A stretch of 64,000 bases of DNA, taken from NCBI GenBank assembly GCA_046483985.1, contig JAWOCD010000092.1, positions 38,455 to 102,454 of the forward strand, in the 5' to 3' direction. The stretch is from Promethearchaeia archaeon. Lineage in GTDB: Archaea; Asgardarchaeota; Lokiarchaeia; Sigyniarchaeales; SOKP01. Every line of letters starts with the position of its first letter. Position 1 is the first letter of the stretch. This document shows positions 53,164-56,889 of this stretch, in pieces. The notes below the pieces were generated by a model, which worked only from the letters and a program-made list of their open reading frames with translations, ran no database searches and was not told the origin of the DNA. The translations under genes were made by a program, and so were the position numbers.

Positions 53164-53334
53164 ACGAGATCAACTTTTTATTATATTCTTTTACTAAGAA
53201 GAGAAATATCCAATTCTAATTATTTTTTAAGATAGGGAATGATTCGATTCCAAATTATAAAATTATAAATATGTAAATCTAATAATATTTAAAGAATTAT
53301 TTCGAATGAAAAAATCATTATAAGACGAGAGAAG

Positions 53335-56322
53335 ATGACAGAGAATATTCCAGACGTTGAAGGAAATATTGACCATAAAAAGGCATTAGAACGTTTAGGA
53401 TTAAGTTCCGGCGAGATTAATGCGTATTTTTCTGTAGCGGGAAAAGGAGTATGTTTAATGAGCGAAATCGCAAAACACGCTCATGTTGAAATGGATGAGG
53501 CGAAAACAATCGTTTCTAAGTTAATTGAAAAAGGATTATTAAAGGAGATTCCCGGAAGAACTATAAGGTTTCAGGCATTACCTCCTTATTCAGCTCTACT
53601 TAATCAATTAGAGGCTTTCCGCGATTATGTTGCAGAGTTAAGAGATGAAGTCCCTCAACAGTTGGAGAATGAATTTTCACGCTTTGAAGAGGGGTTTGCT
53701 AGAGTGAGTGGATTAGAGGATTTCAAAAGATTCGTGACGGATGTAAAAGATAAAATTCCTCAAAGATTAAACAAAAAGTTTACAGAACTTGCCCAAGAGT
53801 TTGAGAAGTTTGAACAAATAAAAGATTTTGAGAAATATATTGGGGAAATTAAGAATTCAGCTCCAATGGAACTAAGTCAAAAATTCGAGGAGTTTAGTAA
53901 GGAATTCGACAATTTGAAAAGTATCGAAGAATTTAAAAACTTCGTTTCTAGAATCAGAGAAAAGGCAAGAACCGAGTTAAAGGATCGATTTGATTCATTG
54001 GAAACAGAATTTACAGAACTAAGAGCATTGGAGGACCTAAAGGGTAAATTTACAGAAATAAAGACCACGGTCCCTCAAAAATTAAGGGGAAGCTTCTCAA
54101 AATTTCAAGAAGATTTTAAGGATGTAGCGGAATTAACATCGTTTAAAGATTTTGTAGGTGATGTGAAGAAATCTCTCCCCAGAAAAATTAATGCAGAGTT
54201 CACGCAAATCGAAAATCAATTTAATCAACTCCAACAGCTTCAAGATTTCGAAAACTTTGTAAGAGATATCACAGCACAAGTTCCGAAAGAGATGGTCCAA
54301 AAATTTGAGGGATTTGAAAATAAATTTCGAAGTGTGTCGGGACTTGAGGAATTTAAGGATTTTCTTACTAATTTAAAAAGAAATGTCCCACAAGAATTAG
54401 AAGATGAGTTTCAAGATTTCGAAACCGCAATTAAGGGAATAAAGTCAGATATTTTAAACACAGAAACCCAACTAATGGGGAATTACCAAAAAATAATGGG
54501 AGATATCTTTAATGAATTTATCGATGCTTTTGTTTCCGAGGTTGTAATGGAGAGAGTAGAAAGCCTAAAAGAGATGTTTCAAGAAGAAGTGATTAAAGGC
54601 GTGGAAGAAATATTGGGAAAGGTCTTACTTAAAACCCAAACAATGAGCAATGAAGTACTCGATTCTTTTGATCAATTAAGGAAGTGGTTAATGGAAGAAG
54701 TTATCTCGGGCTTAAAATCCAGCCTTGAAGCCGTAAACCAAAAAGTAATTGAAGCATCAAAAGGCGTGACCGATGGATTTAATCGGCTAAAGAAATGGAT
54801 CACCCAACAAGTTACCCAAGATTTGGAAAAAACCCTTTCAGAAGTCGAATCTGGAGCAATGGAAGCATCTCAAAGAGTTATTGGCGCAATCGATACATTA
54901 CAGAATTGGTTCGATGAAAAAGTGATCGCAGGACTTGAAAAAATTCTTACCAATATGGAAAAAAAACTAGGAGATGTAGCTCAGAAAGCTTCGGAGAGCT
55001 TACAAGATGTTGAAGGATGGTTCGTTGATGACGCTATCGAAGGAATAGAAGCAACATTAGAAGAAACACAAAATTCTGTAGAACAAGTAACTGTCGAAGT
55101 CCAGAATTCATTGGATGAATTAGAAAGTTGGTTTAGAGGAGAAGCCGTTAATCAATTAGAAGAGGTACTTGAGAATATCGAAGGACGAATTCACGGAGCT
55201 ACCAAAGAAGTTTTAACGGGTTTTGATGAAATGAAATCATGGGTTAGTGAGGACGTCATCATAACCATAAAAGATACATTAGATGATGTAACCCAAAAAG
55301 TAAGGGCTGCAAGTTCTGAAATTGATAAGGAAGTTCAAAAATTAAAAACAATGTTCCAAGGAAGAGTGGTCGAGAACACCTTTAACATGCTAAGCGGTAT
55401 TGAAGATAGATTGTGGGAATCAGAAGCCACAATGAAGGCCTTTTGGGATAAAGCCTTAAGTGAGGTCGCGTTTAGATTTCAAGAGGTTTGGTTTGTACAA
55501 GGAGCAGACGCAATGGTTGGTGAAATCAGTCAGATCGTTGGACGGGTTAAATCCAAATTATTCATAGTTGCACCCCGATTAGAAGATATAGACTTTGTTC
55601 CGATTCGCAACCTAAGTCATCGAATTAATGTTCGAATCGCAGCTAATATTGATCCCAACTCAACTGAGGAAATGAATATCCTTAAGGAATTCATAGAACG
55701 AACAAATTTTGCTTTCCGACATTATCCAGATGAAAATATTTGGGGAGTATCAAAGGATATGGAAGAAATAATTTTAGGTGCGGTTTCTGGGTTTGATGTT
55801 GCTGGTATCGGATCGGTTATCAATGAACATATTAAGAACTTTAATCCAGTGTTAGAAAGGGCGTGGATGAAAGGAACACCAATAAAAAGCATGGATGATG
55901 CCCAAATGATACAAGCAAAACGAGCACCAAGAAAAATTGAAAGAGATATTGCAGTTACAGATACCAATATTCCTGCTCCCTCTACAACAACGCAACCCTC
56001 TGGAGAAGGAGATACCGAATCTATATCCCCACAATACATCTCGGAAGCTTTTTCAGAACAGAAAAAAGAAGCAGCTAAAGAGATAAAGGCGAAACTTGAA
56101 AATTTGAACTCCTTTATTAAAAAAAATCCTACCAAAGGAGAATTAGGCTCAAAATTAAATGAACTCAAGGAAAATATTATTAATAGTTATGGTTTTTCTC
56201 GATTGGTTTTTGATATAAGTAAAATCTCACGAGATTTACTACGTGATCCTAAGAATGTTCTTTCAGATTCTGAAATTGTTAAACTCAAGAACTCAATAAA
56301 AGAATGGAAAGAAAAATTATAA
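53335..56322 (+). CDS. TrmB-family protein with a very long helical-repeat insertion
   Basis: N-terminal LGLS..E..AY wHTH..L.EKGL..F.ALPP; central 8x35-aa and 8x37-aa repeats; C-terminal TrmB effector/PLD-like fold (VWFVQG..KLFIVAP..VRIA..DMEEIILG). Confidence 0.75.
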   Translation: MTENIPDVEGNIDHKKALERLGLSSGEINAYFSVAGKGVCLMSEIAKHAHVEMDEAKTIVSKLIEKGLLKEIPGRTIRFQALPPYSALLNQLEAFRDYVAELRDEVPQQLENEFSRFEEGFARVSGLEDFKRFVTDVKDKIPQRLNKKFTELAQEFEKFEQIKDFEKYIGEIKNSAPMELSQKFEEFSKEFDNLKSIEEFKNFVSRIREKARTELKDRFDSLETEFTELRALEDLKGKFTEIKTTVPQKLRGSFSKFQEDFKDVAELTSFKDFVGDVKKSLPRKINAEFTQIENQFNQLQQLQDFENFVRDITAQVPKEMVQKFEGFENKFRSVSGLEEFKDFLTNLKRNVPQELEDEFQDFETAIKGIKSDILNTETQLMGNYQKIMGDIFNEFIDAFVSEVVMERVESLKEMFQEEVIKGVEEILGKVLLKTQTMSNEVLDSFDQLRKWLMEEVISGLKSSLEAVNQKVIEASKGVTDGFNRLKKWITQQVTQDLEKTLSEVESGAMEASQRVIGAIDTLQNWFDEKVIAGLEKILTNMEKKLGDVAQKASESLQDVEGWFVDDAIEGIEATLEETQNSVEQVTVEVQNSLDELESWFRGEAVNQLEEVLENIEGRIHGATKEVLTGFDEMKSWVSEDVIITIKDTLDDVTQKVRAASSEIDKEVQKLKTMFQGRVVENTFNMLSGIEDRLWESEATMKAFWDKALSEVAFRFQEVWFVQGADAMVGEISQIVGRVKSKLFIVAPRLEDIDFVPIRNLSHRINVRIAANIDPNSTEEMNILKEFIERTNFAFRHYPDENIWGVSKDMEEIILGAVSGFDVAGIGSVINEHIKNFNPVLERAWMKGTPIKSMDDAQMIQAKRAPRKIERDIAVTDTNIPAPSTTTQPSGEGDTESISPQYISEAFSEQKKEAAKEIKAKLENLNSFIKKNPTKGELGSKLNELKENIINSYGFSRLVFDISKISRDLLRDPKNVLSDSEIVKLKNSIKEWKEKL

Positions 56323-56355: not shown

Positions 56356-56889
56356 TTATCGCATAAATGAGGGAAGCATATTACTAAAAATTTCAGCAAT
56401 TTTTGTGAGTTTTGACTTTTCTTTTACATAAGTTGCTATAAGTATTGATTTGTTAAGTTCTTTTTTATCTAAAGATCCTCCAGAATAAACTGCTTCTTGC
56501 GAATTGAACACTAATAGATATCGCACATTTGGATTACTTATCACCGTCACGTTACTCTTGTTTTTAAGCTGATCGTAATATTTTTTATATCCCTCTTGGT
56601 AAAGCCTTCTATCGTTGGTTACCAATAGAACGGGTATATCCTTCTCAGCAATTCTCAGAATCTCAGTTGTATAGAATTTATCTACTTTGGGAGAGACTAT
56701 ATTTAACTGATCATCTGTTTCATTCATAATTCTTATTATTTCATCATTTACTTTGCCTTTTTTATGAGAGCCTTTAGAATCATCAATAGTTAACATTCCC
56801 ACTAAGGAGAGCACTTTCTGTTCGAGCTCTTTAATGCGTTTTTTTAATTTTCTGTTTTCGAATCTGAGTTCTTTGATCCTATCTTTCAT
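56356..56889 (-). CDS. Coiled coil + degenerate PLD-like (TrmB-C-like) domain protein
   Basis: N-terminal heptads; LNIVSP..VLLVT..NVRYLLVFN..EAVYSGGSL where HxKxxxxD..GSxN would lie. Confidence 0.6.
   Translation of the reverse strand: MKDRIKELRFENRKLKKRIKELEQKVLSLVGMLTIDDSKGSHKKGKVNDEIIRIMNETDDQLNIVSPKVDKFYTTEILRIAEKDIPVLLVTNDRRLYQEGYKKYYDQLKNKSNVTVISNPNVRYLLVFNSQEAVYSGGSLDKKELNKSILIATYVKEKSKLTKIAEIFSNMLPSFMR

Follow-up and report, generated by a model that had tools for sequence, protein, structure and literature searches.

A TrmB-headed protein of an Asgard archaeon with two matched arrays of eight helical repeats, probably folded back into a long rod

Here we describe a gene within a 64,000-nucleotide stretch of contig JAWOCD010000092.1 from a Promethearchaeia archaeon (the window, whose positions are used throughout). 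The gene is a single open reading frame (ORF) of 995 amino acids (aa) that runs from 53335 to 56322 on the forward strand without an internal stop. Its product opens with an N-terminal TrmB-type winged helix-turn-helix (wHTH) head recognised by Pfam PF01978 (aa 1-91; 53335..53607, +), followed by an outgoing arm of eight 35-aa helical units in exact register (aa 92-371; 53608..54447, +), an apex or turn region carrying the motif YQKIMGDIFNEFIDAFV and columns that are invariant among orthologs (aa 372-407; 54448..54555, +), a returning arm of eight 37-aa helical units, again in exact register (aa 408-703; 54556..55443, +), and a PLD-like C-domain that profile links and fold point to as the N-subdomain of the TrmB effector-binding domain (aa 704-850; 55444..55884, +). 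We consider it likely that this is a TrmBL2-type protein in which the pairing helix has been replaced by a 612-residue fold-back rod (aa 92-703), giving a structural arm of fixed length.

Repeat arrays and TrmB-like head domains

The first array consists of eight 35-aa units in gap-free register from aa 92 (consensus LEDFKxFVxxIKxxVPQELxxxFxxFExxF), seven of which have a proline at position 16. The second consists of eight 37-aa units in gap-free register from aa 408 (consensus xDxLKxWFxExVIxGLExxLxxVExK), six of which, units 2-7, carry a tryptophan at position 7 (W451, W488, W525, W562, W599 and W636). Mean pairwise unit identity is 28.6% for the 35-mers and 22.5% for the 37-mers, against 7-8% in shuffled sequence (z = 35 and 28, respectively), and the signal is confined to periods of 35 and 37 residues, being gone at a period one residue longer or shorter. 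DNA identity between units is only 45-48%, and no array was detected by Tandem Repeats Finder, indicating that the expansion is old. These results agree with a first-pass annotation made from the letters of the window, which had described the eight-by-35 and eight-by-37 layout, a central tryptophan in six of the 37-aa units, and repeats so diverged in DNA that their expansion must be old. When averaged over orthologs, the 35-mer presents ten hydrophobic core positions with a mean period of 3.5 and a 4-4-4 stutter around the proline, and the 37-mer presents ten with a period of 3.70; units of the two types therefore contribute an equal number of core layers.

Domains of the TrmB family stand at both ends of the rod. 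Profile scans of the protein covered Pfam and NCBIfam, listing matches with E up to 1. PF01978, the TrmB wHTH, covers aa 18-84 with 35.9 bits, above its cut-off of 25.6, which is passed too by P0006 with 42.9 bits and P0011 with 27.6 bits, both orthologs; the NCBIfam scan of the 995-aa protein returned nothing beyond the Pfam matches. TrmBL2 is the top PDB sequence match, the head aligning with residues 12-90 of TrmBL2 structure 5BQT. The C-domain (aa 704-850) has no direct Pfam match in this protein, and its assignment runs through relatives. A profile of nine orthologs with the eight-plus-eight (8+8) arrangement, A1, matches the canonical short relative P0137 (250 aa) over profile positions 714-840 (E 6.7e-13). 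P0137, together with P0087, passes PF11495 over positions 2-134 of 233 (22.6-22.7 bits, cut-off 22.2), and itself matches the sequences of solved TrmB (3QPH) and TrmBL2 (5BOX) with E about 2e-12. Furthermore, hhalign joins the 8+8 profile (A1) to that of relatives of a 3+3 type (A2) with a probability of 100%, and in an AlphaFold2 model of the 3+3 relative P0011 the C-domain superposes on residues 110-242 of TrmB 2F5T (Z 15.4, root-mean-square deviation (rmsd) 2.3 A, 128 residues). The same modelled domain also matches PLD-fold proteins, and the catalytic histidine of the HKD motif of PLD-like domains is not conserved. By this transitive link, through relatives and fold, aa 704-850 are predicted to be the PLD-like N-subdomain of the effector-binding domain. 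The sugar-binding barrel that would complete that domain is absent: relatives match only the first half of PF11495, and the structural match ends at 2F5T residue 242. The first-pass annotation's reading of TrmB-like termini, with an effector-like domain at the far end of the rod, is thus borne out, directly by PF01978 for the head and by way of PF11495-bearing relatives and the fold for the C-domain.

TrmBL2 is an abundant, non-specific chromatin protein. Among known systems the TrmBL2 of Thermococcales (TK0471/PF0496; PDB 5BOX, 5BPD, 5BPI, 5BQT) comes closest in its heads, with the same order of wHTH and PLD-like domain, no barrel, and basic wing residues in common. In the canonical TrmB layout the wHTH is followed by a single amphipathic helix, which forms the dimer as a coiled coil, and then by the effector domain, and the 264-aa TrmBL2 likewise has one short pairing helix (PMC4158304), whereas here a 612-residue rod fills this place and a linker and tail domain are added. 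The sugar-sensing TrmB of Pyrococcus furiosus and Thermococcus litoralis (3QPH, 2F5T) shares the PF01978 wHTH and the effector N-subdomain; in contrast to it, the present protein lacks the sugar-binding barrel and the Tyr50-Asp51 contacts, and its coiled-coil helix is expanded about 15-fold.

Arm lengths and the apex across the family

The nine-ortholog profile, searched against 1.84 billion representatives with relatives counted at E up to 1e-3, found 463 representatives of the protein family. Homologs are assigned at source to Promethearchaeota or Lokiarchaeia and are annotated just as 'helix-turn-helix domain-containing' or 'TrmB'; full-text literature searches found no paper describing the architecture or the family. 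Of 301 genomes sampled from the phylum, 123 carry members, as do 66 of 68 from the source genome's own taxonomic family, usually as two to three paralogs. The rods between the head domains span 13 to 1,226 residues and are strongly quantised in length (98, 240-242, ~284, 328, 372 and 608). Within this range the 8+8 lineage, found in 11 of 161 genomes of the class (ten genera, six taxonomic families), keeps eight plus eight units and a 612-aa rod in all copies from those 11 genomes, down to 33% identity. The 3+3 type is highly conserved as well, with 279 matches in metagenome-assembled genomes labelled Thor-, Loki-, Odin-, Hod-, Hermod- and Heimdallarchaeota, and arms of 118 and 129 residues in 122 of 122 scored copies.

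Between the two arms lies the apex. Its glycine G389 (54499-54501) is invariant among nine close orthologs, and the motif around it, KIMGDIF here, aligns with KLRLGV of most relatives; the region as a whole (aa 372-407) is acidic, with a net charge of -5. Wherever the apex motif was located it sits at the midpoint of the rod (43 of 43 representatives, rods of 98 to 724 aa). Across these 43 representatives and their 16 length classes the arms obey arm2 = 1.027 x arm1 + 7.1 with r = 0.9998, the (arm1, arm2) classes including (45,52), (114,125), (136,147), (158,169), (180,191) and (296,311), up to (353,370). A second, independent set of hidden Markov models (HMMs) applied to 155 proteins, one of them a paralog from the source genome with arms of 206 and 215 residues, gave a slope of 1.01 and r = 0.995 over classes. 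The arms of this protein, 296 and 311 residues around G389, fall on the family regression line.

In the family alignment the extra residues of longer rods come as paired blocks of ~22 aa flanking the apex on both sides. P0002, the sole exception in the 8+8 clade, has gained 57 residues behind aa ~331 and another 59 behind aa 455, two inserts that mirror each other about residue 393, within the apex. On a tree of the head domains, long and 240-aa rods are separated by about six changes, at least two of them forced by strongly supported branches; the matching of the arms has therefore been re-established repeatedly and is not one inherited accident. Co-variation of the two arrays among relatives had been named beforehand, by the first-pass annotation, as the check on fold-back pairing, and it came out positive in both HMM sets and in the paired insertion of P0002. 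With its wHTH and PLD-like domain, its matched arms and its conserved midpoint, the protein is a member of a family of TrmB-headed rods with length-matched arms.

At the far end of the size range stand the giant relatives P0126, P0139, P0144, P0138 and P0150, with rods of 850-1,226 aa, the same head domains and strong apolipoprotein-like Pfam matches. The apex HMM detects no midpoint motif in these rods.

The fold-back reading and its alternatives

Structure prediction was most informative for the 3+3 relative P0011, whose AlphaFold2 model, built from 135 sequences, has a pLDDT (predicted local distance difference test) of about 80 over the rod. Helices at 70-192 and 195-330 are joined in it by a turn of two residues, R193-I194, which is the rod's only helix break and lies just before the apex glycine, G195. 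Both arms together match the Thermotoga chemoreceptor hairpin 2CH7 (Z 11.6, 267 residues) as well as the Smc coiled-coil fragments 5XG2 and 5NNV (Z about 11, about 235 residues); for long helices a Z near 11 denotes a shared arrangement, not kinship, and it is the arrangement alone that we claim. The top whole-protein match of the model in Foldseek and VIA is TrmBL2, the heads being matched, though not jointly as a single rigid body (rmsd about 30 A).

It is very probable that the two arrays pair in a fold-back and so form a rod some 45 nm in length, a reading strongly supported by the midpoint apex, the mirrored +57/+59 insertion, the equal ten core layers per unit and the hairpin model of P0011. 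The first-pass annotation had suggested that arrays of equal count fold back antiparallel like the arm of an SMC protein, and this suggestion gains from the co-variation of the arms and from the superposition of the P0011 hairpin on chemoreceptor and Smc coiled coils. In the proposed arrangement, the eight 35-residue units (aa 92-371) would run outward from a winged-helix head that is accompanied by a PLD-like C-domain without sugar-binding barrel, the chain would turn at the apex (aa 372-407, G389), and the eight 37-residue units (aa 408-703) would return. Since arms of equal count would turn at the apex, unit i of the first array would face unit 9-i of the second, each pair sharing ten hydrophobic layers. 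The length of about 45 nm would follow from arms of about 300 residues, and the fold would bring the two head domains side by side, as in TrmBL2. A disordered linker may then tether the small basic helical tail domain, which together with the conserved tip might offer docking sites for partners. We infer that the protein, probably a dimer, acts as a fixed-length structural arm or spacer projecting from a TrmBL2-like head.

The nearest structural parallels are arms of otherwise different proteins. In SMC, Rad50 and MukB (5XG2, 5NNV), the N- and C-terminal parts of one chain are likewise united in a head, by an antiparallel coiled coil that forms within the chain and measures about 45-50 nm; here, however, there is no ABC ATPase head and no hinge (SMC_N and SMC_hinge unmatched in the Pfam and NCBIfam scans), and the arms are built of 35- and 37-residue repeats. 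Chemotaxis-protein hairpins (2CH7, 3G67) are long antiparallel two-helix hairpins with a conserved tip and provide the best structural match to the P0011 rod; indeed, their length classes arise by symmetric insertions and deletions in both arms (PMC5907407). In contrast to the single heptads of chemoreceptors, the increments here are ~22 aa per arm (in one clade) or whole 35/37-aa units, and with no PF00015 (MCPsignal) match, no membrane anchor and no chemotaxis context the likeness is structural only.

Whether the head still binds DNA we put at about an even chance; binding, if any, would presumably be without sequence preference, by way of the wing arginines. It is supported by the homology of the head to TrmBL2, by the retention of R75 and R78 relative to TrmBL2, and by the net charge of the wHTH span, which at +1 equals that of the aligned TrmBL2 span (hand count). 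We had considered that net charge as an argument against DNA binding and rejected it on the same count. Against binding stands the wing of the 3+3 type, which is not basic.

Several observations weigh against parts of this picture. DNA binding is rendered doubtful by the recognition helix, which starts E52-M-D54-E55 where TrmBL2 has P-A-P-R and places E55, K57, T58 and S61 at the positions of the R, Y, D and R of TrmBL2. Missing, therefore, is the Tyr-Asp contact pair (Y50/D51) found in the recognition helix of both P. furiosus TrmB and TrmBL2 (PMC4158304), at whose positions K57 and T58 stand; the canonical short relative P0137 retains R-I-Y-D. The protein as a whole, moreover, has a net charge of -48, within the most acidic tenth of the ORFs of the window. 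As to the rod, a confident model of this protein itself is lacking: AlphaFold2 on the full-length sequence, with nine sequences, yielded a rod that is helical throughout but for a break at 376-383, at a mean pLDDT of 50.8 that is too poor to use, and the hairpin is modelled for a relative at 29% identity and carried over by homology. The arm-length classes are phylogenetically non-independent. The unit-to-unit similarity matrices of the two arrays show no mirroring in Mantel tests under parallel or antiparallel mapping (r = -0.14 and -0.25), the duplication history of the units being erased, and mutual information in the 3+3 alignment (38 effective sequences, hence low power) picks out a handful of antidiagonal pairs (p = 0.048 overall), without significance outside the apex. 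The 8+8 gene has no neighbour that is conserved throughout the six taxonomic families in which it occurs, so that the neighbourhood gives no functional hint. Finally, the matched-arm evidence fits an intermolecular antiparallel dimer equally well.

In such a dimer the chains would be extended (about 90 nm), arm 1 of one paired with arm 2 of the other and the apices meeting centrally, with a composite head of wHTH and the other chain's C-domain at each end; the result would be a bridging rod with two ends, like the Sso10a dimer of wHTH and antiparallel coiled coil on a larger scale. Matched arms and mirrored insertions are predicted just as well by this arrangement, and there is precedent on both sides of the comparison, a domain swap by way of the coiled-coil helix having been described for the TrmB dimer (PMC4158304), and Sso10a/Sul10a of Sulfolobales being a wHTH chromatin protein with an antiparallel coiled coil and an architectural DNA-binding role (PMC4941522). 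Sso10a/Sul10a is nonetheless small, with an inter-chain coiled coil, no PLD-like domain and no repeats, and the likeness is one of architecture for which we claim no homology. Two features tell against the extended dimer, namely that the conserved apex glycine lies at the only helix break in the confident P0011 model, a monomer prediction that cannot sample the dimer, and that a midpoint with a conserved, specific sequence is more readily expected of a turn or tip than of an uninterrupted coiled coil at its centre. A complex prediction of aa 267-389 against aa 390-518 scored 0.17 (mark 0.32) and carries no weight either way. On this evidence we regard the intermolecular dimer as unlikely and prefer the intramolecular fold-back.

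Less probable still is that the protein is a conventional, sequence-specific TrmB-type regulator whose rod is a dimerisation or sensing module. It has a TrmB-family head, and a mannosylglycerate-hydrolase-like gene, the glycoside hydrolase that it would control, is transcribed divergently from it, a pairing kept in one close relative, G291. However, the DNA-reading residues Y50/D51 are replaced, the sugar-binding subdomain is absent, the hydrolase is not adjacent to the gene in the other five families, and a rod of exactly 612 residues at 33% identity is hard to explain for a local regulator.

A bolder version of the fold-back reading, which we hold to be a long shot of much the same order as the local regulator, is that the rod works as a molecular ruler or tether, with a chromatin-bound head, a 45-nm arm and a tip or tail that docks elsewhere, or with its eight units of 5.5 nm lying along a periodic filament. 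By simple arithmetic 37 helical residues span about 5.5 nm. The subunits of an actin strand are spaced at about this distance too, a periodicity that tropomyosin and nebulin use. If true, the closest relatives of eukaryotes would possess a prokaryotic device that links chromatin to the cytoskeleton or measures filaments. The first-pass annotation had offered a tether from DNA to membrane or cytoskeleton as its other option; this finds no support, as the recognition helix lacks the TrmB/TrmBL2 contact residues and the actin-relative module near the gene is not conserved beside it in other families.

That the arrays are unpaired, forming an extended single or parallel-dimer helical spacer or the apolipoprotein-like lipid-binding repeats between DNA and membrane that the first-pass annotation had also entertained, we deem very unlikely: the proline-punctuated 35-mers and weak, sub-threshold Pfam likenesses over the rod speak for it (apolipoprotein A1/A4/E, PF01442, 29.3 bits, far under the gathering threshold of 90; Baculo_PEP_C, 36.5 bits, cut-off 38; these and prominin we read as helical-repeat noise), but it supplies no reason for arms matched around a midpoint over 16 classes or for the +57/+59 of P0002, it conflicts with the hairpin model of P0011, and in place of a greasy, basic apex there is an acidic one; nor was a membrane segment seen in the protein sequence.

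No known prokaryotes are more closely related to eukaryotes than the Asgard archaea, most of whose structural proteins have yet to be characterised. In the fold-back reading, a small chromatin-type regulator would have been rebuilt into rods of discrete, tightly conserved lengths that range between about 7 nm and more than 50 nm, and nowhere is construction from countable modules clearer than in the 8+8 lineage. The freezing of the 8+8 count and of the 612-residue rod across six families at 33% identity suggests that rod length itself is under selection. Besides chemoreceptors, this would be a second natural example of hairpin length classes kept by paired insertions. New here are the lineage of 35/37-aa modules, its frozen 8+8 count, the +57/+59 paired insertion and the equal number of core layers per unit. 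The family offers a concrete, expressible target for asking how Asgard cells space or scaffold their chromatin or cytoplasm.

Tail domain, paralogs and neighbourhood

Beyond the C-domain the protein continues with a low-complexity linker, probably disordered (aa 851-904; 55885..56046, +), which shows pLDDT < 50 and zero secondary structure in both AlphaFold2 models and differs in sequence and length from ortholog to ortholog. A basic four-helix C-terminal tail domain (aa 905-995, with the stop codon; 56047..56322, +) closes the gene. It is marked by the motif GFSRLVFDISKISR...W, conserved across the family, and by a pLDDT of 76-83 in the full-length model, with an isoelectric point of 9.6 and a net charge of +6. 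No Pfam family matched it, and a query of the ESM Atlas with the tail returned a Promethearchaeota hypothetical cluster as sole match (0.76). The orthologs of one taxonomic family, 851-857 aa in length (L009:8129-10702 in G237; L025:8900-11455 in G303), end right after the C-domain, without disordered linker and basic tail, both of which are kept in other lineages.

The same genome holds two paralogs on other contigs. One (L002:385-3162, contig C57; 925 aa) has an N-terminal extension and a 416-aa rod, with arms of 206 and 215 residues around KLRLGV, and ends in the same tail; the other (L004:910-3036, contig C126; 708 aa) is more diverged. As for the 8+8 and 3+3 genes, in a small comparison (among the genomes G000, G291, G237, G305, G276, G204 and G040) a close 3+3 gene of the P0011 type is absent from four of five genomes with the 8+8 gene, and three of five genomes lacking the 8+8 gene carry a 3+3 gene at 66-69% identity. 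An orthologous replacement of the 3+3 by the 8+8 gene was considered and rejected, as the head-domain tree places the two in separate lineages; the alternation would at most reflect functional replacement.

Genes near the locus encode an actin relative, an Arf-like GTPase and an intein-bearing GyrA. A functional link to the neighbouring actin-relative/CHAT module was considered and set aside, the module not standing beside the gene in other families. Convergent on the 3' end of the gene lies a 177-aa ORF without Pfam family (56356-56889, -), which has a counterpart beside the ortholog in G291 (L007:104-640, 55% identity) and none beside the orthologs in other families. Rfam and tRNA scans of the window returned nothing. 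In a search of sequencing runs, one freshwater-sediment DNA run contained part of the gene, and no RNA runs were listed with it.

Upstream, a TTTAAA element at 53288-53293, 47 nt 5' of the ATG, is a possible archaeal TATA box candidate judging from its sequence and position; it lies in a very AT-rich divergent intergenic region of 171 bp, at 53164-53334, that holds many such strings. Within the gene, a 148-aa antisense ORF occupies 55722-56168 (-), and the orthologous loci L024, L025 and L008 have antisense ORFs of 120-147 aa likewise; these are probably a by-product of the GA-rich coding strand and not a gene.

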